Of a stretch of 64,000 bases of DNA, positions 28,254 to 59,779 are shown one piece after another. The position numbers were made by a program, and so were the translations under genes. Each line of letters opens with the position of its first letter. Position 1 is the stretch's first letter. The notes under the pieces were generated by a model. It did no database searches. It was not told the origin of the DNA and was given only the letters and a program-made list of their open reading frames with translations. The DNA is from an uncultured Nitrospirales bacterium (lineage in GTDB: Bacteria; Nitrospirota; Thermodesulfovibrionia; UBA6902; BMS3Bbin08), in assembly GCA_964574765.1 (NCBI GenBank), contig CAZNPC010000001.1, positions 28,720 to 92,719 of the forward strand, written 5' to 3'.

Positions 28254-28279
28254 CTTTTATTCTTCCCTGAGTTAAAAAG

Positions 28280-43869: not shown

Positions 43870-44802
43870 CTAGCCAAGTGCATGTCTGATTTTGATTGCT
43901 CTGAGAATATACCGCCATATTTTGTCAATCATTTTCTTAATGGGTCCATAATGATTTTCGCTCCTAAATCGATATAGAGACTTAATAACTCGATTATTTT
44001 GCTCGATGTCTTTGTCCATTTCAAGTTGAAATGGCGCTTTTGAAATACTAACTTCGAACCTTTTTGTTACACCACAATGAACTCCGGTACCATCAAAACC
44101 AATATTATTAGTTAACGAGCGCGTGGGCGCGACAGTATAAGCGTTAAGAAGAAATTGCGTATAAAATATCCTCACATCCAGAGCATTAATTTCCCCTTCC
44201 GCCTCTCTCTTCAACATAGACAACAAATCCTCGCCACCTCTCCTGAATCTTCTGACAAGAGATTTATTTCTAATAAATTTATTGAAATCTATTTTGTCAA
44301 TTATTATTTTATCGTACCTATCTGCCCATATACCAAATCCCCATGCAGAGAATCTAGGAGATAAATAGACATCTTTTTTGTAATATCTTTCTAACTTTAC
44401 CGGTGGGGTATAGCCACATATGGCGAAAATATCTTCTCTCTCCTTATAAATAGTAAGCCCTTCATTTATAAATTCCAGAAACCCCGGAGCAGTGACGACA
44501 TCCTCCTCTAAAAAGATTATTTTCCCATAGTTATCAAGAAGCCATCGCATACCATCACGATTATTAGCAATACGATTATTTTTATCTCTTTCTGAAATAG
44601 TGACATTTTTAAACCCATCAAGAGTCTTTAAATAATTACGCACCTTCTTCACTTTGTCTTCATCGCCCGGCTTAGCAGCATCAGAAAAAACGTACAATTC
44701 GCTTTCTTTTGCCAAAGTGTTTTTTTGTAACGCTTCAACAGTTTGCTTTAATACTTCAACCCTTGAGTATGCGCTTAGTCCTATTGGTGCTAATGTCCTC
44801 AT
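43870..44802 (-). CDS. putative GT-A fold glycosyltransferase
   Basis: N-terminal APIGLSAYSRVEVLKQTVEAL (GT2-like start) and an acidic FLEEDVV motif. Otherwise unassigned. Confidence 0.4.
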   Translation of the reverse strand: MRTLAPIGLSAYSRVEVLKQTVEALQKNTLAKESELYVFSDAAKPGDEDKVKKVRNYLKTLDGFKNVTISERDKNNRIANNRDGMRWLLDNYGKIIFLEEDVVTAPGFLEFINEGLTIYKEREDIFAICGYTPPVKLERYYKKDVYLSPRFSAWGFGIWADRYDKIIIDKIDFNKFIRNKSLVRRFRRGGEDLLSMLKREAEGEINALDVRIFYTQFLLNAYTVAPTRSLTNNIGFDGTGVHCGVTKRFEVSISKAPFQLEMDKDIEQNNRVIKSLYRFRSENHYGPIKKMIDKIWRYILRAIKIRHALG

Positions 44803-44958
44803 TTAAGAAAGCTCCTTACCCGGCATATATGATTCAAAGTCCTTATAAATGCCAAAATGCTAATCTCTGAAGATTTCCACAAAAAACTCATATGTACCCT
44901 AGCATCTCGAAATAAATATGACTTTGACTGCACGACCTTTCAACAGAATATTCATAAA

Positions 44959-46155
44959 TCATCCATTCAGTCTATTTAGTTCTGGTGCTTTTTCGTGAGC
45001 TAATTTGATAATTTTACATATCGCGTAGATACAATCAGTAGTGACTACTTGACCACAGGGAAGCTGCATAATTCTTTCAGACAAATAATCTGTTATAGGA
45101 AAAGAGTCAAGCTGCCCCGGGAAATCATCGCAGTAGGGGATAGTTTTATGCAGCCCGGGTGAGAAATATTTTCTACTGGCGATGTTTTCGGCCTTTAAAA
45201 CTTTCATTAATAAATCCCTTGATATACCAAACTTGTCCGGTGAAACCTCCAGTACCACGTATTGATAGTTGCTGGTGTCTGTTGCAACGGGATATAGCAT
45301 GCGTATCCCAGGTATGCCGTTTAGTAATTCATCGTAGAGTTTAAAATAGGTTTCGTTTCGTTTCAGTATCATAGGATAGTCTTCAAGGCTTAGCAGGGCC
45401 ATAGCGGCTTGAGCTTCAGACATTCTTCCATTCCCAGTTATTGGAATGCTTATCGGCCTACCAGCACCATAGCTGCTGCGGATATTTCGAAGCTTTGATG
45501 CTATGTAATCATCATTAGTAGAAACGCAACCACCTTCAGTAGCATTAAGAACCTTTGTCGCATGTAAAGAAAAAACCGAAAGTGCCCCATAATTTCCAGC
45601 AGTCTTCCCTGAAAATGAATTTCCAAATGCGTGTGCCGCATCGAAATAAATCTGTAAATTATTTTGTTTTGCCAAGTCCTCTAGAACTTCTGGATTGCAG
45701 GAGTTCCCCCATAGATGAACACCTAATATTGCGCTTACATCATCATCAATCAGGGCGGCTATTTTTTCAGATGAAATCTGATGAGTTTCGGGGTCTACAT
45801 CACAAAATATGGGTTCTAATCCTGCCCATGAAATAGATTGTGCTGTTGCGGTAAACGTAAAAGCGGGGCAAATGACTTTACCTTTAAGGTCGAGAACCTT
45901 TGCCGCTATTAACAAAGCAATGGTCGCGTTGGTCATACAAATCACATGCTTGACGCCTAATAAACTTCTGAGTTTCTCCTCCAGTTCATCTGTCAGGGGG
46001 CCTTGGTTGGTATAGAATTGCCTGGTAAATATATCGCGAAATACAACTTCAAAGCGTTCCCATTCTGGGAAGTTAAGTTGCCCTACTGGAATTCTCCTCT
46101 GAAAAGCAGGGGCTGCACCAAGTATGGCAAGACTATTGATAGATGGTCTTTTCAT
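44959..46155 (-). CDS. DegT/DnrJ/EryC1/StrS family PLP-dependent sugar aminotransferase
   Basis: FSLHATKVLNATEGG (PLP lysine), DAAHAFG. 398 aa. Confidence 0.85.
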   Translation of the reverse strand: MKRPSINSLAILGAAPAFQRRIPVGQLNFPEWERFEVVFRDIFTRQFYTNQGPLTDELEEKLRSLLGVKHVICMTNATIALLIAAKVLDLKGKVICPAFTFTATAQSISWAGLEPIFCDVDPETHQISSEKIAALIDDDVSAILGVHLWGNSCNPEVLEDLAKQNNLQIYFDAAHAFGNSFSGKTAGNYGALSVFSLHATKVLNATEGGCVSTNDDYIASKLRNIRSSYGAGRPISIPITGNGRMSEAQAAMALLSLEDYPMILKRNETYFKLYDELLNGIPGIRMLYPVATDTSNYQYVVLEVSPDKFGISRDLLMKVLKAENIASRKYFSPGLHKTIPYCDDFPGQLDSFPITDYLSERIMQLPCGQVVTTDCIYAICKIIKLAHEKAPELNRLNG

Positions 46156-47357
46156 TTTCGCATCTGCTCCAGGTATTTTTTTAGCTGTTCTCCACTCTCT
46201 TGTATGAAGCCTAATATTGATGTTATGGCCTGAATGTCATCAGTAGATACAAATTCACCACAGGGCATAAGTAGATATTTTTCTGCAAGCAGTTCTGTCA
46301 CCGGAAGTTCGCCTTTTATGGTTTTGTAATCTGTTTTCTTCATATGAAGGGGAGGTGAATAGTAAGCCCTGGCCAACATATTTTCTGCATGAAGAATGTC
46401 CAAAGTATCCTTACGCGATACTGGCCATTCATCATTTATTTTCAAAAGAATATTCTTAAATCCTCGTTTTTCATTTTCATCGTATTTCACTATTTCAAGT
46501 CCAGCAATCGGCTCAAGAAGCTCGCGGTAATTATGGTAACGTCTACGATTACGAACAACCTGTTCTTCAAGGCCGTCTATACTGGCTAGAGTCATGGCTG
46601 CATGAATTTCGTTGAGTTTGGCATTGATTCCGGTCATGTCTACTTTGTCCTGACCAGAAAAACCAAAAGCACGCATTTTTTTAGTATTTTCAGCAAGTTC
46701 AAGGTCGTTTGTAGTCATATATCCTCCCTCGAAACCATTTAAAAGCTTACTTGCGTGCACAGAAAAGCATTCTGCCTGTCCAAAAGATCCAATCATTTTA
46801 CCCTTATAGGAAGAATACGGCGCTTCTACAGAATCAAAAAGAATTGGGATTCCGTGTTTGGCAGCCAATCCAGTAAGTCCGTCCACATCACATATATTTA
46901 CTATCGGATGTGCGATCAAAATCAAAGCTGTCTCGCTGGTAATACAGGCTTCAACAGTGGCTACACAAGCACCAAGCGTTTTTGAATCTATATCACAAAA
47001 ATTAGGGGTCAACTTAACCCAAGCTGCAAGATCTGCTAATCGTCTATATGTCATCGATGGCATAATGACTTCTTTTTTACCCTGTAAAGCGAGATGTTTC
47101 ATGCATAGCACCAATCCCCAAAACCCGCTACAAAATGTCACGCAATACCTGGTTTGATGAAGATCGGATAATCTTTTTTCCAACTCATGCACCATTGGTC
47201 CGTCGTTTGTTAGCCAACCACTGTCGAAGCTTTTTTTCGCATAAAACAAAAATCTTTCAATATCTGGTTTAACGAGATTAGAGGTCGATCGGATGGTAGA
47301 AAAAACAGGTCTGCCTCCAAACAGAGCTAAATCATTAATGTTTTTTTTGATATTCAT
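46152..47357 (-). CDS. DegT/DnrJ/EryC1/StrS family PLP-dependent sugar aminotransferase (second paralogue)
   Basis: FSVHASKLLNGFEGG (PLP lysine). 401 aa. A8 run within codons 4-6. Confidence 0.85.
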   Translation of the reverse strand: MNIKKNINDLALFGGRPVFSTIRSTSNLVKPDIERFLFYAKKSFDSGWLTNDGPMVHELEKRLSDLHQTRYCVTFCSGFWGLVLCMKHLALQGKKEVIMPSMTYRRLADLAAWVKLTPNFCDIDSKTLGACVATVEACITSETALILIAHPIVNICDVDGLTGLAAKHGIPILFDSVEAPYSSYKGKMIGSFGQAECFSVHASKLLNGFEGGYMTTNDLELAENTKKMRAFGFSGQDKVDMTGINAKLNEIHAAMTLASIDGLEEQVVRNRRRYHNYRELLEPIAGLEIVKYDENEKRGFKNILLKINDEWPVSRKDTLDILHAENMLARAYYSPPLHMKKTDYKTIKGELPVTELLAEKYLLMPCGEFVSTDDIQAITSILGFIQESGEQLKKYLEQMRK

Positions 47358-48079
47358 AATACAAGTAATCTATTAATCGGACGCCTGAGTATGACATCAT
47401 AACGATAATAGGCTGCGTAAAAACCCTCGGGCATTTCACGAATATCTATATCCCAACCAGCTTTATTCACTATATGGATAAAATCATTTTTGCTTCGCCA
47501 TATTCCAATAGGTGAGTTCTTGTCATCTAGAAGATGAGAAAATTCTTTGCCCTCTGGATAAAATAAGTGAGCACGGTCTCTATCTGGCAAATTACCAATA
47601 TACACCGTTTTAATATCAATAAATCGTTCAAATAGTCCACTCAAAACTATTTCCGCATCCTGAGAAGAAAGATAAGTAAACGCCCCGTAAATTAGACATT
47701 TGGTAAACCGTTCAGGCTCAGCTTCATTCTGCACATATGAAGCAGCATCAAATTCCTTAAAAATATAATCAGGAGCCTTTTCAAAGTTTGTTTTTGCAAT
47801 TTCAATGAGGTATTCAGAGTAATCCACTCCTTGAAACTGCAAGATATCATCAAAAAAATACCTTGAGAGTGCTCCGTTACCACAGCCAATATCCAACAAA
47901 ACATCCTCCGATGAAAATGCCAATCCATCTTTTATGGCGCTGACTATCATATTGATTTGATCTTGAGAAACGGGCACGCCATGCACAGTCCTGCTGACCT
48001 GTCCCCAAAAATCGTCTGATGCACAGCTTTTGGGGTGTTCCTTATGCAAATAGTCCCCATTTCCAGGTTTTTTTCTCAT
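47354..48079 (-). CDS. class I SAM-dependent methyltransferase
   Basis: LLDIGCGNGALSRYF motif. Confidence 0.65.
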   Translation of the reverse strand: MRKKPGNGDYLHKEHPKSCASDDFWGQVSRTVHGVPVSQDQINMIVSAIKDGLAFSSEDVLLDIGCGNGALSRYFFDDILQFQGVDYSEYLIEIAKTNFEKAPDYIFKEFDAASYVQNEAEPERFTKCLIYGAFTYLSSQDAEIVLSGLFERFIDIKTVYIGNLPDRDRAHLFYPEGKEFSHLLDDKNSPIGIWRSKNDFIHIVNKAGWDIDIREMPEGFYAAYYRYDVILRRPINRLLVL

Positions 48080-48145
48080 TTCAGTGACTCCCTAATAATA
48101 AAAATACTTCCAAGCATAGATATCCCGGTAAACTCATGTGATAAT

Positions 48146-48859
48146 TCAAGATCGCAGCTCACAGTCATCAAGAATTTTTTTCACTTCCTCAATATCATTC
48201 CACATGAGGCAGTCAATAATCGACAAACCCGCCTCAAAACTAGGACATGACTGCTTGTAAGGTCTCAAAAATGAATCCAAAAATTTAAGTTTTATATTCT
48301 TTTCGGCAAATTCAGCAGGACGAAATATATCTCTTCCGCCTATTGGATTGATATATTCTGAAGCTCCCATTTGTTCTGCAATTCGCAGAGCCCACTGACC
48401 AGGGTGATCAACATCCTTTATATTTATGCGCATTTTAGATAAAGTGTGAAATACACATTTAATATTTAGGTAGTTGCATGTATTCTGAATTGACCTCGTT
48501 AGAAGATTAACAAGTAAATCTTCATTGTCATTAAGATTTGAATTGACGAAGTCTATCACTTTCAAAAAGTTTGGTGCTTTTTTCTTGTAGGACTGCGTTA
48601 ATTGTCCAATGATTCTTGCTTTCCATTTAATGCCATTGTGAATCTTCATGTCATTAATCGGTGTTTTCCTCTCAGCCTTATGAAGAGGAATTAATATATA
48701 TTGCCATCCATCTTTAGGGTGAAGCACCCTGTTTCTATTAACCCACCCATGCCGAATATACTGAGGAATATCAAAAAAAACCCAATGATCAGCACTATTA
48801 ATCAGCTGAAAGTATCCAATATATGGGAAAAAATAGGGCTGCATAATGCCAACACGCAT
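48146..48859 (-). CDS. WbqC-like family protein
   Basis: MRVGIMQPYFFPYIGYFQLINSADHWVFFD, a characteristic WbqC-like N-terminus. Confidence 0.7.
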   Translation of the reverse strand: MRVGIMQPYFFPYIGYFQLINSADHWVFFDIPQYIRHGWVNRNRVLHPKDGWQYILIPLHKAERKTPINDMKIHNGIKWKARIIGQLTQSYKKKAPNFLKVIDFVNSNLNDNEDLLVNLLTRSIQNTCNYLNIKCVFHTLSKMRINIKDVDHPGQWALRIAEQMGASEYINPIGGRDIFRPAEFAEKNIKLKFLDSFLRPYKQSCPSFEAGLSIIDCLMWNDIEEVKKILDDCELRS

Positions 48860-48887
48860 CAGTCACTCTCCAATTTTTGTAGTTTCC

Positions 48888-49187
48888 TCAGGATGCAGCA
48901 AATACCTTACCATTATCCTCCAAACTTGCTCCCCATCCAAGACAGACCGTGCTACGACCATAGGCACTTCCTATCTCCACAATGTCACCCATAAGCTCGG
49001 TACTCTTGGCCATTTCAAAGAGCCAGCGGGCCTGTTTTTCACTTAACCAGCCATATACACCATTCCAGAGCGACCGGTAGTGTCTGAAATCATCTTTAGA
49101 ATAAAGCCGTTGGTCCAGCTTTGCTTTGATTTGACCTATTACGCCTAAATGATATTCTCGAATCAACTCCAGGCTTTTCTCCCTCAT
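48888..49187 (-). pseudogene. truncated N-terminal fragment of a class I SAM methyltransferase (99 codons)
   Basis: DIVEIGSAYGRSTVCLGWG resembles the SAM-binding start of O-methyltransferase family 3/Methyltransf_24. The ORF ends about 120 aa short of a full enzyme and cannot be continued in any frame. Confidence 0.4.
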
Positions 49188-49334
49188 TTTGCTGCATGCT
49201 CCTTAATTTTTGTTTCCTCATAAGTTCAGTTACTAAATATCGTCCCATCGCTGCATACCACCTCGACTAAGTCTCGTTTTTTGTCCTTTAATATCTTACA
49301 GGGAAGTTTTCCCTGTGACGGCTATAATATTTAA

Positions 49335-50615
49335 TCATGATTTTACTTCTCCTTCTGACGAGACCTTCCATTCCGCGTCTACAATCTGGATTAATCCATA
49401 GGATATCAATTCTCTGTTGATATGTTCCTCTGCATCCATTACTGCAAGTACTTCAAAGGGATTAATAAATTCCAGATGATCCAATCCAGAATGGGGCTGG
49501 CGAATCCCCAAAGTTAAGGAATACCACCCGGGAGTCAAGTAGACCGATGGGATATATACCTCACCTTCGATTATTTCGCCACTGTTGATATCGAATCGCT
49601 TTGTGCTGCAAAGTGTCGTAATACGCTCCTGACGGAAAGAGTTAATCCCAAATACAAATTGAACATTCTTTACTGAGTCGACTCCAACACACTGCATTTT
49701 CAGGGAGAATGATTCTCCAAATCTTATCTTTGAGGTCTTCATACCGTCGGCATTATACAGGCCGCTTTCACTGATACGAACCACAGTGCCGAAACCTGGC
49801 CGCCTTGAAAGATTATATAAATTATCGTTTTCTACTTGTTCTCTCATGTTCTCTAAATAGGTGTCTATAACTGGCACCACGTTTCCTTCTTTTATCGGGC
49901 TTCCATTTTCCAAAAGAATGGCTCTGTTGCATAGTCTTTGTACTGCCTCCATATTATGACTCACAAATAGCACAGTCCGTCCTCCTTTTGCAATGTCGCC
50001 CATCTTTCCCAAACACTTTTTCTGAAATTGAGCGTCACCTACGGCGAGCACCTCGTCTATTACCAGAATTTCAGGCTCAAGGTGGGCTGCAACAGCAAAG
50101 GCAAGCCTCACATACATCCCACTTGAATATCTCTTTACAGGAGTATCTAGGAATTTCTCTATCTCTGCAAAAGCCACAATCTCATCAAACTTAGCACTTA
50201 TTTCCTGCCGGCTCATACCCAAAAGAGCTCCGTTCAGAAATATATTTTCTCTGCCTGTGAGTTCCGGATGAAATCCTGTGCCAACCTCAAGGAGGCTGCC
50301 CACTCTGCCACGCATTCTTACTTCACCCTCTGTAGGTTCAGTGATCCTGCTCAGGATCTTCAGAAGCGTGCTTTTCCCTGCGCCATTCCTTCCAATAATT
50401 CCGATGACCTCCCCTTCATTGACTTCAAAGGAGACATCTTTTAAAGCCCAGATCTTATTTTCATCATGAGTATTCTGTGAAGAGTGAGAAGTAAGTCGTC
50501 TAAAAGGACTCGTCAATGTCTTTACTATCTCTTCGCGCAAGTTGCCGTAAGAGGCCCTCTCCCCGATCGTATACTGTTTTGATAGATTTCTTATTTCAAT
50601 AACAGGTTTAGCCAT
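49335..50615 (-). CDS. wzt: ABC transporter ATP-binding protein, Wzt/TagH-type with C-terminal extension (second system)
   Basis: Walker A GIIGRNGAGKST, signature YSSGMYVRL, Walker B ILVIDEVLAVGD. About 170-aa C-terminal domain. Confidence 0.8.
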   Translation of the reverse strand: MAKPVIEIRNLSKQYTIGERASYGNLREEIVKTLTSPFRRLTSHSSQNTHDENKIWALKDVSFEVNEGEVIGIIGRNGAGKSTLLKILSRITEPTEGEVRMRGRVGSLLEVGTGFHPELTGRENIFLNGALLGMSRQEISAKFDEIVAFAEIEKFLDTPVKRYSSGMYVRLAFAVAAHLEPEILVIDEVLAVGDAQFQKKCLGKMGDIAKGGRTVLFVSHNMEAVQRLCNRAILLENGSPIKEGNVVPVIDTYLENMREQVENDNLYNLSRRPGFGTVVRISESGLYNADGMKTSKIRFGESFSLKMQCVGVDSVKNVQFVFGINSFRQERITTLCSTKRFDINSGEIIEGEVYIPSVYLTPGWYSLTLGIRQPHSGLDHLEFINPFEVLAVMDAEEHINRELISYGLIQIVDAEWKVSSEGEVKS

Positions 50616-50620
50616 ATCGT

Positions 50621-51448
50621 TTAAATTACGTCTGCAAAATACCGCTCAACACGGCGAAAGTAAAATATACCACCCAGAAACACAACTAACCCGATTACCC
50701 CGGAGATGCCAAGCGACGTCCACGGGATAGGCATATGTCCGAGCACCGCAGGCCTGAAGGCCTCAATCACACCAGACATCGGATTCAGTGCAAGTATCCA
50801 GCTGTATTGTTCACCCAGGAGACTGCTCGGGTAGATAACAGGGGTTATGAACATCCATATCTGTATTATGAAAGGGATTGCATATTGTATGTCCCTGTAC
50901 CTCACGTTCATGGCACAAAACCACATTCCAAACCCTACAGCATTCATTATGGTGAGAAGCACTAAAACCGGAACCAGCAGTATTCCCGAACTTACAGAAA
51001 CTCCGTAATATATCATCATTATTCCAAGTACTACTGAAGCTATACAGAGATCTAAAAGTGCGGATATAGCAGGGCTGGCAGGCATAATTAGTCTGGGAAA
51101 ATATATCTTGGTAATCAGGTTCTTCTCAGTCACAACGCTGTTTGTGGATCGCCCGAGAACTGCCGAAAAATATTGCCATGGCAGGAGCCCAATATAGACA
51201 AAGATCGGATACGGCACTCCATCTGAAGGCATCTTTATAAGACGCCCAAATAGAACAGAAAAGACAAGCATTGTCAGCACCGGCTGCAATACAGCCCAAA
51301 TAACACCAAGGAATGTCTGCTTATACCTGACCTTGACATCTCTCCATGCAAGGAAATAAAGAAGTTCACGGAAGGCCCATATTTCACGGAAGTTGATAGA
51401 TATCCAGCCTTTTCTGGGTTTTATAATTATTTCGTTAACATTATCCAT
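50621..51448 (-). CDS. wzm: ABC-2 type transporter permease (Wzm, second system)
   Basis: Six TM helices. Start set at MDNVNEII (51448). The ORF-track start at 51535 would overlap fcl by about 95 nt. Confidence 0.75.
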
Positions 51449-52391
51449 TGTCAGCCATCCTGTTATCTCTATACCACCTGTAAGTCTCCTCAATTCCCTG
51501 TTGCAGGGTAGTCTTAGCCTTCCAGCCAAGTGCATTTATTTGAGTTACATCAAGGAGCTTTCTCTGCATTCCATCAGGTTTCGAGGTATCGAACTCAAGC
51601 CCGCCTTTATAACCGGTGATCTCCTTTATCATATGAGCCAGTTCATTTATGGATATATCCTCGCCAGTACCTACATTTATGATGTCTGGACTGTCATATT
51701 TTTCCATTAAGAATAGGCTTGCGTCTGCCAAATCATCAACATAAAGGAACTCTCTCCTTGGTTTTCCGGTGCCCCAAACGGTAATGGAAGGGTGTTTGTC
51801 CTCCTTCATCTGTACTGCTTCTACACATTTTCTTATTAATGCAGGAAGGACATGTGATGTTTCCAGATCGAAATTGTCATTAGGCCCATAAACGTTGGTA
51901 GGCATTATTGAGATAAAGTTAGTTCCATACTGTCTATTGTACGCCTGGCACATCCTGATACCGGCTATCTTTGCAATTGCGTATGGTTCATTGGTCGGCT
52001 CCAGTGGAGCAGTAAGCAGGTGTTCTTCCTTCATGGGCTGAGGACATAGTTTAGGATAAATGCAGGAACTGCCTAAAAAAAGAAGCTTTTTTACTCCATA
52101 AACATAAGCATTATGTATAACGTTAACCTGAATAGCGAGATTGCTGTATATAAAATCCGCGGGGTATGTGCTGTTTGCCAGTATACCCCCTACCCTGGCT
52201 GCAGCAAGAAACACATACTCAGGCCTCTCCCTTTCAAAGAATGCCTCTACCTCAGACTGATTGCATAGGTCCAGTTCTTTGTGTGTTTTATGGATAAGGT
52301 TGGTATGCCCCTCAGATTGCAATCTGCGAAGGATTGCAGACCCTACCATTCCCCTGTGGCCGGCAATGTAGATTTTAGAATCCTTCGTCAT
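51441..52391 (-). CDS. fcl: GDP-L-fucose synthase (GDP-4-keto-6-deoxy-D-mannose 3,5-epimerase/4-reductase)
   Basis: [19 protein letters not shown] ... [10 protein letters not shown] ... SSCIYPK motifs. Start set at MTKDSKIY. Directly downstream of gmd. Confidence 0.85.
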
Positions 52392-52525
52392 AAGCATTGT
52401 TAGAAGTATGAGGCATGAGGTTAGAGGGAAAAAGCTTGAGGTTAGAGGTTTAAGGCTTTTGCCTCCCTCTTCCAACCTCATTCCTCAAACATATTTCCTT
52501 AGTCCTAAAATCTCAAAACTCAATC

Positions 52526-52915
52526 TCATTTCACCTCAAATCTCTTTCTCCCCCTTACTGCATTCATTAATCCGTTTAGTTTGCGGTCTATCTCTTCTCC
52601 TTTTATTCTTACAGTGTTAGACTCATCTTCAGAAAATAACTTTCTTCGTCGATAAATTTCATTGAGAGTTATCGTTTCGTAAAGAGAGCCTTGAGCAATA
52701 CTTAAATATTGAAGAAACTCTTTCTTGTGTTGACGACCTTTTCCTTCTGCTATGTTTTGTGGTACAGAAGTTACAGACCCTTCCATCTGAGAAACTAAAC
52801 GCATATGTTTATTGAAGGGGATTTTTTCCAGCAATCCCAAAACATAATTTGCCAACTCCATTGCCAATTGCCAAACTTCTAATTTCTCAAATGGAAATAT
52901 ATATATTCCTTTCAT
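52526..52915 (-). CDS. four-helix-bundle protein (23S rRNA intervening-sequence protein family), second copy
   Basis: FEKLEVWQLAMEL ... NIAEGKGRQHKKEF ... AQGSLYE. RBS GGAGGT supplied by the first unit of the adjacent 40-bp tandem repeat. Confidence 0.7.
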   Translation of the reverse strand: MKGIYIFPFEKLEVWQLAMELANYVLGLLEKIPFNKHMRLVSQMEGSVTSVPQNIAEGKGRQHKKEFLQYLSIAQGSLYETITLNEIYRRRKLFSEDESNTVRIKGEEIDRKLNGLMNAVRGRKRFEVK

Positions 52916-52920
52916 ACTTT

Positions 52921-53180
52921 ACCTCCAGCCTCTGCCCTCTGTCCTCTTCTGTTATGTTTTACCTCCAGCCTCTAACCTCTGTCCTCTTCTGTTATGTTTT
53001 ACCTCCAGCCTCTAACCTCTGTCCTCTTCTGTTATGTTTTACCTCCAGCCTCTGCCCTCTGTCCTCTTCTGTTATGTTTTACCTCCAGCCTCTGCCCTCT
53101 GTCCTCTTCTATTATGTTTTACCTCCAACCTCGGCCTCAACCTTGTTTTTATCCTCATCCTCCAACCTCTGTCCGCTTCT
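52921..53180. repeat. 40-bp tandem repeat, 5 near-perfect plus about 1.5 degenerate units (acctccagcctctgccctctgtcctcttctgttatgtttt)
   Basis: Units at 52921, 52961, 53001, 53041, 53081. Units 2-3 carry the tctaacctct variant. The 40-bp period is not a multiple of 3. Lies between gmd and the second 4HB gene. Confidence 0.9.
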
Positions 53181-53210
53181 TTAAACTCAGCCTTGGCCTC
53201 AGCCTCAGCT

Positions 53211-54353
53211 TTATCTATTTGTCAGTTTATTCTTCGTCCAATGTATGCCCTTCCCCTGTAAAATCTTATTGCCCGCTCCCGGTGCGTCTATGCCGATCAT
53301 TTCCATATCTGCGTCTACCATTATCTTAACTAACTCTTTAAAATTTACTTTTGGCTGCCAGCCGAGTTGTTTCGTAGCCTTTGATACGTCCGCTAATAGG
53401 TAATCTGTTTCTGTGGGACGAAAATACCTTGGGTCTATCTCGATCAGAACATCTCCGATGTTGATGTTAGAGGTCGGGGGTTGGAGGTTAGAGGCTAAGG
53501 ATTTAACAATGCCTTTTTCCTTAACTCCCTTCCCCTGCCATTCAAGTTCGATTCCGGCATAACTGAAGGCCAACTCGGCAAATTCTTTGACCGAATGGCT
53601 TTCACCCGTACCTATGACATAATCATCAGGCTCATCCTGCTGAAGCATCAGCCATTGGCATTCAACATACTCAGGCGCAAAACCCCAGTCTCTTTTGGCA
53701 TCCAGATTTCCAAGATATAGTTTTTTCTGCTTATTGGCGTTTATATTGGCAATGGCCCTGGTAATTTTTCTGGTTACAAAAGTCTCCCCTCTTCTCGGTG
53801 ATTCGTGATTGAACAATATGCCGTTACACGCAAACATGTTATAACCTTCTCGATAATTAACTGTCATCCAGTATGCATATGCTTTAGCGCATGCATACGG
53901 ACTTCGAGGCGCAAAAATAGTCTTTTCGTTCTGAGGGGGAGGAGCTGAGCCGAACATCTCACTGCTTGATGCCTGATAAAATCTCGTTTTTATCCCGCTT
54001 CTTTTTACAGCCTCAAGTAATCGTGTTGAACCCAGGGCAGTTACTTCACCCGTATACTCAGGAATATCAAAGCTTACCCTTACATGGCTCTGCGCGCCAA
54101 GATGATATATCTCGTCCGGCTTGATGTTATAAACCAGATTTGTCAATTGCCCGGCGTCAGTAAGGTCACCATAGTGGAGCAATAACCTGGCGCCTGATAT
54201 ATGCGGGTCAACATAGAGGTGGTCTATTCTTCCTGTGTTGAATGTGCTTGCTCGACGGATAAGTCCGTGAACCTCGTAGCCTTTTGATATGAGCAATTCG
54301 GTCAGATATGAGCCATCCTGCCCTGTAATCCCTGTGATCAATGCCTTTTTCAT
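53211..54353 (-). CDS. gmd: GDP-mannose 4,6-dehydratase
   Basis: [47 protein letters not shown], a diagnostic N-terminus. 380 aa. GGAGGG RBS. Confidence 0.9.
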
Positions 54354-54406: not shown

Positions 54407-54426
54407 CCTGCCTTCCGGCAGGCAGG
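54407..54426 (-). promoter_or_regulatory. GC-rich leader hairpin CCTGCC-TTCC-GGCAGG(CAGG) between ops-like element and gmd
   Basis: Perfect 6-bp GC stem with a 4-nt loop in an otherwise AT-rich leader. A near-identical hairpin is at 59864-59883 upstream of rfbA. Confidence 0.4.
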
Positions 54427-54545
54427 GATGCCGGTTTAGTTAGAAGGTCACGTAGTTGGTGTTGACTTAACCCTGAAACTAACTACTATACTGGCTTCTT
54501 TGCCCTTACCTTTACCCGCTTCCCTTTTGATATCACAGTCTCTAA

Positions 54546-54557
54546 ACAGGCTACCGC
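54546..54557 (-). promoter_or_regulatory. ops-like element GGCGGTAGCCTG (11/12 match to enterobacterial ops GGCGGTAGCGTG) in the leader between the nusG-like gene and gmd
   Basis: Reverse complement of 54546-54557 reads GGCGGTAGCCTG on the sense strand of the minus-strand operon. It lies 110 nt downstream of the NusG-paralogue stop and 190 nt upstream of the gmd start. Confidence 0.45.
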
Positions 54558-54662
54558 CATTCGGGTTATCAAAACCCGTTCTCTTGAACAAGTTCACAGT
54601 TTGCCGCGACATAATAAACTTTAGCCGTTAAAGAGACAGCTAAATTCAATCTCTGTTTATGA

Positions 54663-55154
54663 CTATGCCCTTGTCAATATCGCCCTATCAACGATAACGC
54701 TTGACTGATATTCAATAGCTGACAATAGCAGGACAATCCTTTCGCTTCCATTCACTTCCCTTTCGAATATTCCGGTGAAATCTTTAAGCGGCCCTTCAGC
54801 GATCCTGACCCTGTCTCCGCGTTCAAAATTCACAGGTTTCATAGCTATTACTCCCTCATGTTCCTGCGACTTGATAAAATCAATGATATTCTCTGAAACC
54901 GGCCATGGTTTTTCTGTATCGCCTACTACTTTTTTTATGCCTCTTGTGTACCTTATCATCCATAGATGCTTTTCAGGTTCAAACCGTGCAAATATATAAC
55001 AGGGGAATAATGACGAGACAGTCTCTCTGTATTTTCCCCTTATAAACCTCTTCTGTTGAAGCTGGGGGCTGTAAACCGTCAGTCCCGCCTCTTTCAGGCT
55101 GTTTATGACATATCCTTCTCTTTTAGGTTTTGTATAAATTGAATACCAGTTCAT
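54663..55154 (-). CDS. NusG-family paralogue (RfaH/UpxY/LoaP-like specialised transcription antiterminator)
   Basis: 163 aa. NGN-domain start MNWYSIYTKPKRE...V...L and C-terminal KOW-like GDRVRIAEGPLKDFTGIFE. Sits at the head of the long operon. Confidence 0.7.
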   Translation of the reverse strand: MNWYSIYTKPKREGYVINSLKEAGLTVYSPQLQQKRFIRGKYRETVSSLFPCYIFARFEPEKHLWMIRYTRGIKKVVGDTEKPWPVSENIIDFIKSQEHEGVIAMKPVNFERGDRVRIAEGPLKDFTGIFEREVNGSERIVLLLSAIEYQSSVIVDRAILTRA

Positions 55155-55237: not shown

Positions 55238-55804
55238 TCATTTATTTACCGGATATATACTTTTTATTAATTCCTTATCAACCCCAAGGGCTAGTAATTT
55301 TTGATACACGCTGTCCCTTCTCATATGCGTGGTGATAATTATGTAATCAAAATCAACTTCATTGACATTGCCAAAGGGCATAACAACTGTTTTGAAAAAT
55401 TTCCTGCCTTTTCCCTCATCATCCAATACGCCCAGAAAATTTAGATTACACTCCTGAAGAGACAGGTATGCAATCTCTGCAACCTCATCAGCTCCTGCAA
55501 ATACGACTCTCTTGACGCCACTATCCTGTAGTTTGATGAATAACTGCCTGAAATCCCTTCTTGCCTCACGGAATACCCTGTTATAGTTTTGCAGAAGATG
55601 GTATGTTAAACGGCTTTTTTCAGTAAAGCCCTTTGCAGTGAGAAAGTATGCATATCTTTTGGATGGAATATTCTTTATTGTTACAAAGCCCTTTGAGATA
55701 AGGTTTTTTATGTACGAATTAACAAGACCGAGTGCCAAATTCAGTCTTTTACTCAAATCTCTTTGAGATAGAGACTCGCCCCTTGAAATTTCATCAAGTA
55801 GCAT
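55238..55804 (-). CDS. winged-helix DNA-binding protein with C-terminal Rossmann-like (CoA_binding_3 / sugar-transferase N-domain-like) domain, putative locus regulator
   Basis: N-terminal wHTH (LSQRDLSKRLNLALGLVNSYIKNLISKGFV). C-terminal KRVVFAGADEVAEIAYL...NFLGVLDDEGKG...VDFDYIIITT pattern. Start set at ATG 55804. The GTG start at 55864 lies inside the conserved palindromic operator. Confidence 0.5.
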   Translation of the reverse strand: MLLDEISRGESLSQRDLSKRLNLALGLVNSYIKNLISKGFVTIKNIPSKRYAYFLTAKGFTEKSRLTYHLLQNYNRVFREARRDFRQLFIKLQDSGVKRVVFAGADEVAEIAYLSLQECNLNFLGVLDDEGKGRKFFKTVVMPFGNVNEVDFDYIIITTHMRRDSVYQKLLALGVDKELIKSIYPVNK

Positions 55805-55808
55805 TAAA

Positions 55809-55915
55809 GACTTGTAACCATCCTGATTATCAGGCTTTTTATCGTTCAGATTGTGAACGTTCACAATTTGAACATATCACATTTTAAATCAATTGTCAAG
55901 TAAAAAAAAGGAGGG
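55809..55915 (-). promoter_or_regulatory. sigma70-like promoter (TTGACA-N17-TGaTATGTT) with the 12-bp perfect palindrome GTGAACGTTCAC at about +1, upstream of the regulator/nusG-like genes; copy 2 of a duplicated module
   Basis: Minus-strand read: ccttttttttacTTGACAattgatttaaaatgTGaTATGTTcaaattGTGAACGTTCACaatctgaacgat. About 90% identical to 34449-34555 over about 107 bp. Confidence 0.55.
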
Positions 55916-55948
55916 AAACATTAATAGCCCGCATAAGTCCGGAAACTA

Positions 55949-56779
55949 TTATTTGCTTTCAAGATAGGCTTTTAGTCCCTGATTCCAGTGTCTGAGGGTC
56001 TCAATGCCCTCAAGTTTCAACATGTCATTTCCGAGCACTGAAAATGCCGGCCTTTTAGCCGGGCGATTGAGTTTTTCAGAGGATACCGGATTGATCCGCG
56101 CATTAACCTTTTTCAACCTTGCTATTTCAACGGTAAATTCGTACCATGAGCAAGCAGATGTGTTGGTTATATGATATATACCATATTCCCTGCCGATAAG
56201 CGCCTTTAATTTTCCCGCAAAATCATATGCGTAGGTCGGCGAACTAATCTGATCATTAACAACATCTATATCTTTTTTTTCAGCCAAAAGTCTCACTATT
56301 GTATCAACAAAATTCTTGCCGTTCCTTCCGAAAAGACCGGATGTCCTTACAATGTAAAACTTATTAGTCAGCATTTGAACAGAATTCTCTCCCTCAAGTT
56401 TTGAAAGTCCATATATATTTACGGGGTTAGGTTTGTCATGTTCGCTGTAAGGCTCTTTCTTTCTGCCGTCAAAGACATAATCAGTGCTGATATAAATAAC
56501 GGGACAATTAATCGCTTCGCAGGCTGAAACGACATTTCGAGTACCTGTACCATTAACAAGATATGCCCGTTCAGGATCGATCTCACAGCCATCAACGTCA
56601 GTAAAAGCCGCGGCATGGATCAGATAATCGGGTTTTATCTCTTTAATCCTGGATAAAGTTTTATCAAGATCCGTAATGTCAAAATCACTGCGGGTCAGCC
56701 ATACAACATCCTGATCGTGTAAAACCTGTTTAAGGGCAAAACCGAGTATCCCTGATGAACCTGTTACAGCAACTCTCAA
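55949..56779 (-). CDS. rfbD: dTDP-4-dehydrorhamnose reductase
   Basis: MRVAVTGSSGILGFAL ... RfbD family length and motifs (YxxxK in YGLSKLEGE). Confidence 0.85.
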   Translation of the reverse strand: MRVAVTGSSGILGFALKQVLHDQDVVWLTRSDFDITDLDKTLSRIKEIKPDYLIHAAAFTDVDGCEIDPERAYLVNGTGTRNVVSACEAINCPVIYISTDYVFDGRKKEPYSEHDKPNPVNIYGLSKLEGENSVQMLTNKFYIVRTSGLFGRNGKNFVDTIVRLLAEKKDIDVVNDQISSPTYAYDFAGKLKALIGREYGIYHITNTSACSWYEFTVEIARLKKVNARINPVSSEKLNRPAKRPAFSVLGNDMLKLEGIETLRHWNQGLKAYLESK

Positions 56780-57003
56780 TCCTTCAACCTTTCCTTATAA
56801 TAATAATTGGCCGCAAATTTGCACTTATCATATTAAAACTCGAAATTCGACGTAATATCAATATTTGAATGTTCAAAATTCTAAACTTTTAACTTAAAAT
56901 TATCATTGTTTGTAATATTAGTATTTTGGTCATTCGATATTGTTTCGTGCTTCGGTTTTCGTATTTCGAATTTAACCCTTCATAGGTCTGAGTGAGTCAG
57001 TGG

Positions 57004-58023
57004 CTAAATAGATTCTCCATACTGGGTCTTGTAATATTCCGCGTATTCTCCCGAAATGATCCTCTGCCACCACTGTTTATTGTCAAGGTACCATCCGACT
57101 GTATCTGATATGCCGGCCTCAAAGTCCATTTCAGGTTTCCAGCCGAATTCTTTCTCAACCCTTGCAGGGTCCAGCGCATACCGCCTGTCATGACCCGGCC
57201 TGTCATTTACAAAGGTAATGAGGCCGTTAAGCTTCCCTTCGTCAAGCTCGAGTTTTTCAGCTATCGCATTCAGGACTAAATTGATCGTTGATATGTTAGT
57301 CTTCTCATTTCTTGAACCGATATTGTATACACCACCCGGCCTGCCCTGATGCAGAATGATATCTAATGCCTTGCAATGATCGGATACATGGATCCAGTCC
57401 CTTACATTCTTACCGTCACCATATACCGGTATCGGCTTGTTGCTTACAGCGTTTAATATTACAAGAGGAAGAAGCTTCTCAGGAAACTGGTACGGGCCGT
57501 AATTGTTTGAACATCTGGTTACTATTGCCTTTACACCGTAAGTCTCAACATATGACCTTACAAGCAGATCAGATGATGCCTTGCTTGCCGCATACGGGCT
57601 GTTCGGCAAAAGAGGGGAATCTTCACTAAACAGGCCTTTTTCGATCGAACCGTATACTTCATCTGTCGATACATGCAGAAAAGTACACCCCCTGTTCTTC
57701 GAATACTCGAGAAGATTATTTGTGCCTATCACGTTGGTCTGTATAAATGGATCGGCCTTAAGGATACTTCTGTCAACGTGGCTTTCAGCGGCAAAATTTA
57801 CGATAGCATCCACATCTATGCCTTCGATGATCTGCCTATCGCATATATCACCTTTTACAAACGAGTAATTAGGAGAGCTTTCAATATCATTAAGGTTTTC
57901 GAGATTCCCGGCGTAAGTGATCTTATCCAGGTTGATCACATGATAATCAGGATGCGCAGACATAAGATGCCTGATGAAATTAGAACCAATAAACCCGGCA
58001 CCGCCTGTGACCAATATTTTCAT
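57004..58023 (-). CDS. rfbB: dTDP-glucose 4,6-dehydratase
   Basis: [21 protein letters not shown] ... HVSTDEVYG ... YAASKASSD, diagnostic for RmlB. Confidence 0.9.
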   Translation of the reverse strand: MKILVTGGAGFIGSNFIRHLMSAHPDYHVINLDKITYAGNLENLNDIESSPNYSFVKGDICDRQIIEGIDVDAIVNFAAESHVDRSILKADPFIQTNVIGTNNLLEYSKNRGCTFLHVSTDEVYGSIEKGLFSEDSPLLPNSPYAASKASSDLLVRSYVETYGVKAIVTRCSNNYGPYQFPEKLLPLVILNAVSNKPIPVYGDGKNVRDWIHVSDHCKALDIILHQGRPGGVYNIGSRNEKTNISTINLVLNAIAEKLELDEGKLNGLITFVNDRPGHDRRYALDPARVEKEFGWKPEMDFEAGISDTVGWYLDNKQWWQRIISGEYAEYYKTQYGESI

Positions 58024-58146
58024 TCCTGCTCCGCAGAATAGTTCATAGTTGTCCCCGCAAATCCTGATGGATTAAGACGCGGGGCAGGCCGTTGTTCATT
58101 GTTAATTGCTAATTGATAATTTTTCATTTTGCAATGTTATTTTCTA

Positions 58147-58587
58147 TTAGTCTATTTTAAACTGCGAATCAGGTTCATTTTCATACCTGACTTCATCCGC
58201 CTCTTCCTTTTTCCCCCGGCCTCTGTAAAGCCGGTCAGGCATATTAATGACATAGCTGTCGGAAGATCCGATATTCTTATATGCATGCACAATTCCCGGC
58301 GGTATAACCACCATTGTAGGAACATCTGAAGTATCTATTGTCTTATGCTCCCCGTATGTTGCTGATCCTTTTCTATTATCCCAAAGATATATCCGGAACT
58401 TCCCGACCAGGCAGAAACAGTCGGTCTGTTCTTTATGTTCATGCGGGCCCCTGACAATCCCGGTTCTGGTCAGAGAAAGATACGCCATCATCGGCCTCAG
58501 AGATGTCTCATCCGACCTGATCATCTCGCCGACCCACCCCCGCCTATCTTCATTTAGTGAGATTTCTCTTATTTCCAGTCCGTCCAT
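58147..58587 (-). CDS. RmlC-like cupin: dTDP-sugar 3,5-epimerase or FdtA/QdtA-type 3,4-ketoisomerase (short, 146 aa)
   Basis: RGPHEHKEQTDCFCLVGKFRI closely parallels the FdtA motif RGFHAHKKLEQVLVCLNGSCRV. In the rfbC position between rfbA and rfbB. Confidence 0.6.
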   Translation of the reverse strand: MDGLEIREISLNEDRRGWVGEMIRSDETSLRPMMAYLSLTRTGIVRGPHEHKEQTDCFCLVGKFRIYLWDNRKGSATYGEHKTIDTSDVPTMVVIPPGIVHAYKNIGSSDSYVINMPDRLYRGRGKKEEADEVRYENEPDSQFKID

Positions 58588-58714
58588 GGTTAATCACCAA
58601 CTCTTAGTTGATAGCTCATAGTAAAAACATTTAAAATAGCCCTTAGTTCACAGTTAATATTATAGTCTATTCGCTACGAGCTATGAGCCAAGAGCTATCA
58701 GCTATTCACGTCCT
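58588..58714. repeat. intergenic repeat family A copy between rfbC and rfbA
   Basis: See 19107-19261. It also carries cgagctatgagccaagagctatcagct, matching 4150-4177 gctatgagctataaactatcagctatgagct. Confidence 0.6.
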
Positions 58715-59779
58715 TTATACTTCAACTACTGAATCATCACCTATCATAAGCCTTAGAGCTTTATGAAGAGTACTTTTGGATATCTTTACCCTGCGACCGA
58801 TAAGGCAGTCTTCCATCCGCTCAATATCCTTCACCTCACTGCCGGTCATAATGACTGAATGCTCCACTGAAGACCTTATTATCCTGACATTGTCCCCGAT
58901 ACTTGAATGAGGCCCGATAAAAGCGCTCTCTATCTCTGAATCTTCACCGATAATGACCGGTCCCCGGATCGTACTGTTCTTTATCATCGTTCCTTTCCCT
59001 ACGTATACTCTGCCGTCTACTCTGCTCTTTTCATCAACATGACCAAACATATCACCTCTTAGCCATTCATCAAGCACAACAGCATTTGCAGTAAGAATAT
59101 CGTCTTTTTTCCCTGTGTCAAGCCACCATGTATCAAGAATACGACTCTCCACCCTTTTTTTCGACTCTATCAGTTCCTGAATGGCATCGGTAATCTCCAA
59201 CTCTCCTCTTTTTGAAGGTTTTATCTTCTCTATAGCTTCATGTATGGCTGATGAAAAAATGTATATACCTACCAGGGCAAGATTAGATCTTGGCTCTTCC
59301 GGTTTTTCAACCAGGCGGACGACCCTGCCTTCTGCCGTTGTCTCAGCAACACCGAACTGTTTTGGATCGTTAACTTCTTTAAGTAATATAAGTCCCTCAG
59401 GACGCAGTTTATTGAATTCCTGAACAAATATGTTGATATCAGATCCAACAAGGTTATCACCCAGGTACATTACAAACGGTGAATCAGATAGAAAATCTTT
59501 CGCGGTCTTAATAGCATGTGCCAGTCCGCCGGGTATAACTTGAGTTATATACTCTATCTCTATGTTCCACATACTGCCGTCACCGACGGTATCTTTTATC
59601 TCCTGACCAGTCTCAGGCGATATGATTATTCCTATATCTTTAATACCTGCATTAACAATATTGTCAATGCAGTAAAACAATATAGGTTTATTGGCGACAG
59701 GAACAAGCTGTTTGGCTCCTGAATGTGTCAGCGGCCGCAGGCGAGTCCCCTTTCCTCCACTTAATATAATTGCCTTCAT
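58715..59779 (-). CDS. rfbA: glucose-1-phosphate thymidylyltransferase (long form with C-terminal left-handed beta-helix)
   Basis: MKAIILSGGKGTRLRPLTHSGAKQLVPVANKPILFY. Hexapeptide-repeat C-terminus. 354 aa. Confidence 0.85.
   Translation of the reverse strand: MKAIILSGGKGTRLRPLTHSGAKQLVPVANKPILFYCIDNIVNAGIKDIGIIISPETGQEIKDTVGDGSMWNIEIEYITQVIPGGLAHAIKTAKDFLSDSPFVMYLGDNLVGSDINIFVQEFNKLRPEGLILLKEVNDPKQFGVAETTAEGRVVRLVEKPEEPRSNLALVGIYIFSSAIHEAIEKIKPSKRGELEITDAIQELIESKKRVESRILDTWWLDTGKKDDILTANAVVLDEWLRGDMFGHVDEKSRVDGRVYVGKGTMIKNSTIRGPVIIGEDSEIESAFIGPHSSIGDNVRIIRSSVEHSVIMTGSEVKDIERMEDCLIGRRVKISKSTLHKALRLMIGDDSVVEV

Follow-up and report, generated by a model that had tools for sequence, protein, structure and literature searches.

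RfaH and its ops signal are the textbook case of a transcription factor which is loaded by a signal in the non-template strand of the DNA. The locus described here raises the question whether this mode of loading extends beyond the enterobacteria. It lies in a stretch of 64,000 nucleotides (nt) of contig CAZNPC010000001.1 (assembly GCA_964574765.1, from an uncultured Nitrospirales bacterium), which is called the window in the following, and it comprises a gene for an RfaH-like NusG paralogue of 163 amino acids (aa), a 12-nt sequence resembling the ops element of Escherichia coli, and a long run of glycan genes. A first-pass annotation of the window had suggested that a functional ops at this place would extend the RfaH/ops pair phylogenetically. 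After comparison with related loci, we consider it likely that the locus encodes an RfaH-type, ops-loaded module for processive antitermination of a glycan operon of about 20 kb.

Wang et al. (2020) reported RfaH in 23 of 117 phyla, with about 95% in Proteobacteria (PMC7593976). According to these authors, E. coli is the sole case in which the details of recruitment have been worked out, and the contacts to DNA were proposed to have come late (PMC7593976). Full-text searches on JUMPstart and ops gave gammaproteobacterial studies only, mostly on enterobacteria; subscription-only papers aside, no description of a conserved ops/JUMPstart-like element outside Proteobacteria was found in the open full-text literature.

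The ops Element and Its Recurrence

The strand which carries GGCGGTAGCCTG is the coding, i.e., non-template, strand of the neighbouring genes (Table 1). The element agrees with E. coli GGCGGTAGCGTG in 11 of 12 positions, as had been stated, the sole mismatch being at position 10. It is situated downstream of the paralogue stop as described, but at a distance of 104 nt (its first base is the 105th nt after the stop) rather than 110 nt, and 193 nt separate its end from the ATG of gmd at 54353. With up to one mismatch, the 12-mer was found once in the window, where 0.03 hits are expected, and no second ops was detected in the 64 kb at this threshold. The 8-mer GGCGGTAG also occurs once, with 0.82 expected, and at least once in 60 of 100 shuffled sequences; near-matches to the 9-mer are at chance level (7 versus 5.1). 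The caution of the first-pass annotation about chance hits was thus correct: the case for ops is not supportable from the window alone, and comparative evidence decides.

Homologues of the paralogue numbered 61 in the protein collection, one being 90% identical and the others at most 58%. A scan of one genome per species gave 559 relatives, the best 80 of which were taken with their flanks (loci L001 to L080); 78 of these 80 had usable downstream DNA and form the denominator of the ops counts. The loci stem mostly from metagenome-assembled genomes (MAGs) labelled Nitrospirota or Thermodesulfovibrionia, some from genomes labelled Nitrospinota, Deltaproteobacteria/Thermodesulfobacteriota, Aquificota, Ignavibacterium or Calditerrivibrio.

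Exact copies of GGCGGTAG on the same strand and at most 400 nt after the paralogue stop were present in 48 of the 78 loci. The remaining 1.06 Mb contained 11 other copies on both strands, which amounts to a 151-fold enrichment (Poisson P ~7e-86). When the variants GGCGGCAG and AGCGGTAG were admitted, ops was found in 54 of the 78 loci. The best matches in the ops-less loci were at chance level only (3–5 mismatches); therefore the motif is either intact or absent, with no intermediates. Core positions 2–5 and 7–9 are identical in all 54 sites, but they were fixed by the selecting pattern and their invariance is not independent evidence. Outside this pattern, position 10 is C in 45 of 54 sites, position 11 a pyrimidine in all 54, position 12 G in 51, and position 13 again a pyrimidine in all. 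For E. coli ops, which is an instance of the consensus pause, recruitment of RfaH was shown to require bases 3–8, and pausing T11/G12 (Zuber et al. 2018, PMC5995543); the constraint on Y11 and G12 mirrors these requirements.

The ops strand is always the non-template one. A few loci are arranged differently: in L041 ops precedes the paralogue gene by 63 nt, in L075 it is on the opposite strand at the head of a divergent operon, and in L065 it follows 3.5 kb downstream. The relatives with the 90%-identical paralogue (L202, L203) show the same degree of conservation in the non-coding DNA between the stop and a point about 50 nt beyond ops as in the coding sequence, with T11 → C as the single change within ops; beyond this the leader diverges, with insertions and deletions, up to the ribosome-binding site of gmd. 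Thus, the pairing of gene and signal recurs in dozens of related genomes, and RfaH/ops would appear to reach beyond its described range, as had been anticipated: Nitrospirota, Desulfobacterota-type and other MAGs are among the loci.

An open reading frame (ORF) of 54 codons (54448..54612, minus) begins 18 codons 5' of ops and reads through it. It was rejected as an ops-spanning leader peptide and regarded as an artefact, with neither frame nor start conserved across loci. In L202 and L203 such an ORF is annotated as a gene of 60 aa (984..1166 in L202). Between ops and gmd, a GC-rich hairpin, CCTGCC-GGAA-GGCAGG with a GGAA tetraloop, was noticed at 54407..54422 (minus); no T-run follows it, and it is not kept in the 90%-identical relative.

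Metagenome contigs were also scanned for exact copies of the 16-mer GAATGGCGGTAGCCTG, and at least 121 sites on at least 120 contigs were obtained. Among the matches listed, an RfaH-like gene precedes the site in 23 cases, and a distant NusG paralogue follows 62–71 nt downstream in 2; about 70 sites fall within long ORFs and resemble chance hits. Four contigs (L100, L103, L145, L180) carry a homologue of the regulator described below (208-aa type, 57–61% identity), the hairpin-ops pair and glycan genes, including a sugar dehydrogenase-like gene and a Wzx-like flippase, with no paralogue between them. This suggests that one genome may hold several ops-led loci served by a single paralogue, and that the factor could also act in trans; because of these four contigs, ops would be a portable loading site, open to use in trans. 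Paralogues at loci without a nearby ops do not differ in the conserved residues, and their target sites may thus be located in other parts of their own genomes.

Two further observations were made with the 16-mer. In L148 (ops at about 452, gene 513..1115) and L195, the extended ops stands upstream of the distant NusG paralogue (LFPGYLF type, about 200 aa), an "ops before the gene" arrangement as in UpxY or PrfaH, in another branch of the family. Eight near-identical contigs (L093, L102, L121, L146, L159, L162, L169, L172) have no recognisable genes near GAATGGCGGTAGCCTG, only ORFs which look spurious; a stem of 6–7 bp precedes the site in seven of them, and L146 ends too near the site to tell.

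The Hairpin Preceding ops

A stem-loop stands in front of the window ops (Table 1), with AAT (54559..54561) as spacer. Nearly all ops-positive loci showed the same geometry, i.e., a stem of 4–9 bp in a stem-loop which ends 2–4 nt before G1; the spacer measures 3 nt in 39 of 54 cases and is mostly AAT, AAC or GAT. There are 34 distinct stems in the 54 sequences. Uninterrupted stems have a mean length of 5.04 bp, compared with 3.56 ± 0.18 bp after dinucleotide shuffling and 3.4–4.15 bp at other anchor points of the same loci. A covariance model, R1, was built from five geometry-matched sequences. It recovered one site per ops-positive locus and, on scanning of the whole window, exactly one hairpin-ops site (54545..54581, E ~5e-5, with filters on or off). 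In the R1 alignment, which was fitted to the model, 91.4% of the cells are paired (52% in shuffled and 25–48% in slid controls), 123 double-sided changes were counted versus 40.5 ± 5.4, and 7 of 7 pairs covary. Since the stems contain G-U pairs on the sense strand, the folding molecule is suggested to be the transcript.

The E. coli rfbB leader served as positive control; it scored 60 bits with Rfam family RF01707 (JUMPstart) and shows a 5-bp hairpin, 1 nt, and then GGCGGUAGCGUG. RF01707 gave no match at E ≤ 1 in the 52–58 kb part of the window, nor at E ≤ 10 in eight related loci, and the remaining Rfam families yielded nothing relevant in the window leader or in these eight loci. The element resembles JUMPstart in having a short hairpin directly 5' of ops in an untranslated region ahead of polysaccharide genes, whereas the sequences of stem, loop and 5' flank are unrelated. 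The spacing differs as well, with a spacer of 3 nt instead of 1 nt in E. coli. The end of the stem is therefore 14 nt away from the U11 pause, and 12 nt from C9; in E. coli 12 nt separate the stem from U11. At U11, E. coli polymerase backtracks by 2–3 nt, and RfaH can load from C9 to U11 (PMC5995543). A stem at such a distance could perhaps cap backtracking or serve as a pause hairpin in the exit channel.

Just 5' of the hairpin, a palindrome TGAAC-N2-GTTCA was found, possibly an extra site for a regulator or a small upstream hairpin. Its significance is weak if taken alone (3 hits versus 0.54 expected, for N0–8).

The RfaH-Like Protein

The description of the paralogue as an NGN+KOW protein was confirmed. 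Pfam NusG (NGN) matched residues 1–94 (E = 2e-17); no Pfam family matched the KOW part, for which the profile alignment with RfaH, reaching residue ~160 and covering RfaH residues 3–161, and a barrel in the AlphaFold model account. In the NCBIfam ranking, RfaH (TIGR01955) was top with 108.3 bits, followed by UpxY (70), NusG (51) and LoaP (47). The protein remained below the cut-offs for UpxY (NF033644, 69.9 versus 100 bits), LoaP (NF033641, 46.7 versus 125 bits) and the housekeeping nusG equivalog (51 versus 135.7 bits); the genes around it are glycan genes, not secE/rplK. Identity to E. coli RfaH is 29% over 147 residues, and the family profile scored 91 bits with E. coli RfaH and 39 bits with E. 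coli NusG in a comparison with the PDB. By these measures RfaH is the nearest characterised relative.

An AlphaFold model, computed from 62 sequences, had a pLDDT (predicted local distance difference test) of 90.6, and its NGN domain could be superimposed on RfaH (2oug/5ond) at 1.7–2.0 Å. The top full-length structure match was "fully recruited RfaH" (8phk), because the C-terminal domain is predicted as a β-barrel.

The residues of 79 homologues and the window protein were tabulated against E. coli RfaH. Counterparts of W4, Y8, K10, Y54, T72, R73, G74, V75, I93, F130 and R138 are invariant or nearly so. Within the set of ops-contacting residues (K10, H20, R23, Q24, T72, R73), K10, T72 and R73 are invariant, as are the adjoining G74 and V75, and the other three vary. 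The equivalents of I93, F130 and R138, of the autoinhibition interface, are kept; the AlphaFold barrel, being a prediction, cannot settle whether the domain is metamorphic. At the position of E48, Glu is present in 37 of the 54 homologues linked to ops, and Ser in the window protein and its lineage.

In four loci (L057, L079, L037, L052), ops has the change T6 → C (GGCGGCAGCCTG). Their paralogues have unusual residues close to the predicted DNA-binding patch, namely Y8 → Q in L057 and L079, and Q at the position of R23 in L037 and L052. This may be co-variation of protein and DNA; with four loci, the sample is too small to judge.

Regulator, Promoters and Probable Operator

The gene upstream of the paralogue encodes a winged-helix regulator related to MarR and MarR_EPS, which scored under the cut-off of MarR_EPS TIGR04176 (56.3 versus 88 bits). 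Its winged helix spans approximately residues 20–108, and the C-terminal ~100 aa match no family. Homologues with 52–62% identity abut or overlap the paralogue start in L001–L011, referred to here as the window clade; the equivalent regulators of sister clades are shorter (about 105–140 aa). An association of one RfaH cluster with a helix-turn-helix regulator has been described (PMC7593976).

The candidate promoter of the marR-like gene has its –10 region ending 6 nt before the start codon, so that the mRNA is probably leaderless. The same promoter is found at the same distance in L003, L004, L011, L103, L145 and L180. Between paralogue and ops, no sigma-70 promoter was detected in the window clade, save a weak and unconserved 9/12 match at the gene end. 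The sister clade, clade B (L016, L019, L030, L043, L046, L050, L051, L054, L067, L078), has a promoter TTGACC-17/18-TATATT in this interval, with the –10 ending 58–69 nt before ops (58–62 nt in 9 of 10 loci), and a short marR-like gene after ops. The simplest reading for the window clade would be a single transcript with marR-like gene, rfaH-like gene, hairpin-ops, and gmd onward. The first-pass annotation had placed ops in an operon leader; it does stand upstream of gmd, but in this lineage it is probably intercistronic. From the two layouts it can be concluded that ops is always read by polymerase heading into glycan genes, and that the paralogue gene has no fixed place with respect to the promoter.

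Tandem palindromes GTTCA-N5-TGAAC cover the transcription start site and start codon of the marR-like gene. Four copies are present in the window versus 0.08 expected, the second tandem pair lying at 34484..34513. The palindrome occurs in 47 of 204 fetched loci, always at fixed places: as tandem pair at the marR-like start, as single copy just past the –10 of the clade-B promoter, or, in another clade, as a copy 5–55 nt upstream of the paralogue. It is probably the operator of the MarR-like regulator, since such fixed placement fits the behaviour expected for the operator of a co-inherited regulator. A block in clade B, AGTTCAGTGCCTGAACGCAC, was considered as a homologue of the 5' half of JUMPstart (CAGTGC); it is better explained as this operator at the transcription start site.

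The Glycan Clusters

The run of genes from gmd to a tetratricopeptide repeat (TPR) protein (54353 down to 10779) represents a glycan pathway of the ABC (ATP-binding cassette) transporter type, with two wzm/wzt pairs, DegT aminotransferases, radical SAM/B12 enzymes (SAM, S-adenosylmethionine), a homologue of asparagine synthase and many glycosyltransferases of family GT2. It had been described as an operon of 44 kb with very few gaps. The co-directional run exists, but it has sizeable gaps of 653, 475 and 296 nt and a duplicated internal promoter, and consists of two clusters: ops stands in front of the first, of about 19 kb, and the second, of about 24 kb, lacks ops and has a promoter copy of its own.

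Cluster 1 contains gmd, an epimerase gene, wzm/wzt, WbqC, aminotransferases, methyl- and sulfotransferases, GT2 and CMP-sugar enzymes; a wzm/wzt glycan cluster belongs to the classical target class of RfaH. Scans for promoter and terminator consensus inside this cluster gave chance-level counts and were uninformative. Cluster 2 contains the second wzm/wzt, GT2s, radical SAM enzymes, asparagine synthase, epimerases and the TPR protein. The 653-nt gap between them (34461..35115) holds a terminator-like hairpin, a fragment of a GT2 gene, and a copy of the marR-like promoter, operator and codons; the copy has 78% identity to 55780..55960, with the first ~20 codons of the marR-like gene fused before wzm2. 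Because of the ops-less promoter/operator copy at 34.5 kb and the terminator-like hairpin at 35.1 kb, a length of about 20 kb is more probable for the ops-governed unit than one of 44 kb. Transcription of cluster 2 could begin at its own promoter, or polymerase could read through into it from cluster 1.

The following observations concern the same region. The interval 34420..35115 was read as a recombination scar between two glycan clusters; the fragment in it is a GT2 N-terminus which ends in a stop (about 34780..34900), and the true start of wzm2 is probably an ATG at 34425 with the Shine-Dalgarno sequence GAAGGAG. A paralogous pair of PF05635 genes ("23S rRNA-intervening sequence protein"; 52526..52915 and 33081..33461, minus) lies inside the glycan clusters; the products are four-helix-bundle proteins, and a member of this family also follows gmd in the close relative L203. 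Genes similar to rmlD, rmlB, rmlC and rmlA, for dTDP-rhamnose, are located directly upstream of the marR-like promoter (55949..59779, minus), therefore the glycan region extends past the cassette on both sides. After the TPR protein, at 5458..8836 (minus), genes unrelated to glycan synthesis were found, for an unassigned 547-aa protein, an NHL-repeat β-propeller and a multihaem MtrC/paired-CXXCH cytochrome.

Table 1. Positions of the features discussed, numbered from the first nucleotide of the window.
Feature	Position	Strand	Basis
ops element GGCGGTAGCCTG, predicted pause at T11 (54548)	54547..54558	minus, non-template	pattern scan, conservation, covariance model
JUMPstart-like stem-loop CGGGTT-ttgat-AACCCG	54562..54578	minus	stem statistics, covariation
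Palindrome TGAAC-N2-GTTCA, just 5' of hairpin	54585..54596		identical in close relative
RfaH-like NusG paralogue, 163 aa, NGN and KOW-type C-terminal domain	54663..55154	minus	ORF, Pfam, NCBIfam, AlphaFold
MarR/MarR_EPS-related winged-helix regulator, 208 aa	55238..55864	minus	Pfam HTH_24, 5.5e-10
Candidate sigma-70-type promoter of marR-like gene, TTGACA-17-TATGTT, TG-extended	55871..55899	minus	10/12 match
Tandem GTTCA-N5-TGAAC over transcription start and start codon of marR-like gene	55844..55873		palindrome scan
gmd (GDP-mannose 4,6-dehydratase), first gene past ops	53211..54353	minus	TIGR01472, 550 bits
Glycan cluster 1, likely ops-governed	35115..54353	minus	Pfam/family matches
Terminator-like hairpin with T-run, right after last ORF of cluster 1	35096..35110	minus	
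Second promoter copy TTGACA-17-TATGTT (34511..34539) with tandem operator pair (34484..34513)	34484..34539	minus	
Glycan cluster 2	10779..34461	minus	Pfam/family matches

Proposed Mechanism

From sequences, positions, conservation, covariation and the homology to RfaH we infer the following course of events. RNA polymerase would start at the promoter before the marR-like gene (in sister clades, at the conserved promoter which precedes ops by about 60 nt) and transcribe the leader, where the short hairpin would form in the nascent RNA. At 14 nt after the hairpin, polymerase would reach T11 of GGCGGTAGCCTG, which agrees with the consensus pause in having G at –10, a pyrimidine at –1 and G at +1. 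During this pause, G4 to A7 of ops should be exposed on the non-template strand. The NGN domain of the paralogue would bind this exposed DNA with its conserved patch of K9 and Y69-T70-R71-G72-I73, and bind polymerase as well. Travelling with polymerase, the paralogue would then exclude the housekeeping NusG and suppress pausing and Rho-type polarity along the gmd-led glycan cluster (~19 kb) and perhaps also along the 24 kb which follow. Initiation at the same units would probably be controlled by the MarR-like regulator on its GTTCA-N5-TGAAC operators.

Several points weigh against this scheme. The paralogue did not reach the equivalog cut-offs of RfaH itself (TIGR01955, 108.3 versus 144.5 bits; NF006534, 88.3 versus 124 bits). 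Three of the four side chains which form the T6 pocket in E. coli (H20, R23, Q24) are replaced by S19, E22 and A23 and are variable in the family. The anti-pausing motif HTT (H65-T66-T67), needed in E. coli, is HLW in the window protein, with a family pattern of H/Y-x-H/W/R. The C-terminal domain was modelled as a β-barrel and not as the autoinhibited α-hairpin; because of this prediction, together with E48 = Ser in the window lineage, the fold-switch logic which makes ops obligatory in E. coli may be absent here. At the level of the loci, about 24 of 78 have no ops nearby, gmd has a strong Shine-Dalgarno sequence (GGAGGG), unlike typical RfaH targets of E. coli, and cluster 2 has its own promoter copy without ops. 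Furthermore, the alignment that showed the covariation was fitted to R1, and the taxonomic labels of the MAGs are only those given in the records. Since the score is below the cut-off and the pocket residues, HTT motif and predicted fold state differ, the paralogue is not filed as an RfaH orthologue; it would rather be a variant of the RfaH/ops kind. The arrangement in 54 of 78 loci, the retained Y11 and G12, the covarying hairpin and RfaH as nearest relative nevertheless give strong support to the suggestion of the first-pass annotation that ops would be functional beside an RfaH-like paralogue outside the enterobacteria.

Alternative Explanations

The hairpin and GGCGGUAGCCUG could be an RNA element, recognised in the transcript by the paralogue or another factor, and not in the non-template DNA. 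For this speak the covariation of the hairpin and the G-U pairs on the sense strand, which point to a folded transcript, the filing of JUMPstart as an RNA motif by Rfam, the precedent of LoaP, which binds a hairpin in leader RNA, and the lack of conservation of the T6-pocket residues of E. coli RfaH. However, the 12-mer does not differ from the DNA signal of E. coli at any position required for RfaH or for pausing (PMC5995543), K10 and T72-R73-G74, which contact the DNA, have invariant counterparts in K9 and T70-R71-G72, and with 108 bits for RfaH compared with 47 bits for LoaP, the paralogue is nearer to the former. Recognition in the RNA is thus regarded as unlikely.

The motif could also be a generic strong pause or RNA-processing signal in glycan leaders, independent of the paralogue, e.g., for coupling of transcription and translation or as a 5'-end stabilising hairpin. 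The match of ops to the consensus elemental pause would agree with this, as would the four contigs with hairpin-ops and no adjacent paralogue and the 24 of 78 paralogue loci which lack a nearby ops. A pause signal, however, should drift at G4 to G8, which are dispensable for pausing in E. coli (PMC5995543), whereas the exact 8-mer recurs in 48 of 78 loci with no intermediates; the 151-fold positional linkage to the paralogue gene is also hard to explain without a functional link. This explanation appears quite improbable.

That GGCGGTAGCCTG is a double-stranded operator of the adjacent MarR-like regulator is very improbable, although ops has a marR-like gene beside it also at sites which lack the paralogue: the motif has no palindromic symmetry and is strictly strand-specific, in clade B it lies 55–70 nt downstream of a conserved promoter, and GTTCA-N5-TGAAC over the transcription start site is the better operator candidate. 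Chance, finally, can hardly be entertained for the ops-like 12-mer beside a NusG paralogue: the bare 8-mer is expected 0.82 times in the window, but the same relative position and strand in 48–54 of 78 independent loci refute it, and R1 gave its single window hit at E ~5e-5.

Comparison with Known Systems

An RfaH-type module loaded by ops is closest to E. coli RfaH with GGCGGTAGnnTG: family and fold are the same (NGN at 1.7–2.0 Å root mean square deviation), the signal is a 12-nt non-template element with identical bases 1–9, 11 and 12, long surface-glycan operons are the targets, and K10, T72, R73, G74, Y54, I93, F130 and R138 are conserved. In contrast to E. coli, where the rfaH gene stands alone, the paralogue gene adjoins its own target; H20, R23, Q24 and HTT are not conserved, E48 is Ser, and a β-KOW is predicted. 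The host is probably a member of the Nitrospirota and not of the Proteobacteria.

In enterobacterial plasmids with PrfaH (IncX) or ActX, an RfaH-like gene is likewise linked to the activated operon, and the transcription unit contains an ops-like site (PMC11880322). There, the site is downstream of the prfaH promoter and before the gene, whereas here ops comes after the gene. Hosts, targets (conjugation versus glycan synthesis) and partner regulators differ as well. UpxY and UpxZ of Bacteroides offer another parallel, i.e., a NusG paralogue which heads a capsular-polysaccharide operon and is joined by a second small regulator. The family of UpxY is different (NF033644, 70 bits with a cut-off of 100), UpxY acts in the 5' leader upstream of its own gene, with no DNA signal of the ops type mentioned (PMC7819879), and unlike UpxZ, the partner here is a winged-helix DNA-binding protein.

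Homologues which are encoded in cis and exist in the β state were proposed to load without ops (PMC7819879, PMC13015549). The window protein shares with the predicted "monomorphic β-RfaH" clade (2026 preprint, PMC13015549) a β-barrel C-terminal domain, the loss of some ops-contacting residues and a long adjacent operon of the lipopolysaccharide type. For that clade an ops-independent recruitment in cis was proposed, whereas here a canonical ops and the hairpin are conserved beside the gene. Thus, ops appears to be retained next to a cis-encoded protein predicted in the β state.

Conclusions

A wider reading, to which we give somewhat less than an even chance, is that recognition of ops is a property of a larger RfaH-like clade (Nitrospirota, Desulfobacterota and other phyla). 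In it, a cis-encoded and possibly non-autoinhibited (β-KOW) factor would read the same 12-mer with partly different side chains, within a cassette of four parts, i.e., MarR-type regulator, GTTCA-N5-TGAAC operator, RfaH-like factor and hairpin-ops. If this is true, the use of ops would be earlier, or more widely transferred, than in the model in which DNA contacts came last, and the proposed ops-independence of cis-encoded, β-state RfaH homologues would be contradicted.

The linkage of a canonical ops and a JUMPstart-like hairpin to RfaH-like genes in dozens of non-proteobacterial genomes provides natural variants in which the pocket residues differ and the DNA is unchanged. With these it could be asked which residues specify ops, whether autoinhibition is needed for ops dependence, what role the long-ignored JUMPstart hairpin has, and how the system evolved and spread. 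Model R1 should also be useful as a simple annotation marker of glycan-operon leaders in uncultured anaerobes.

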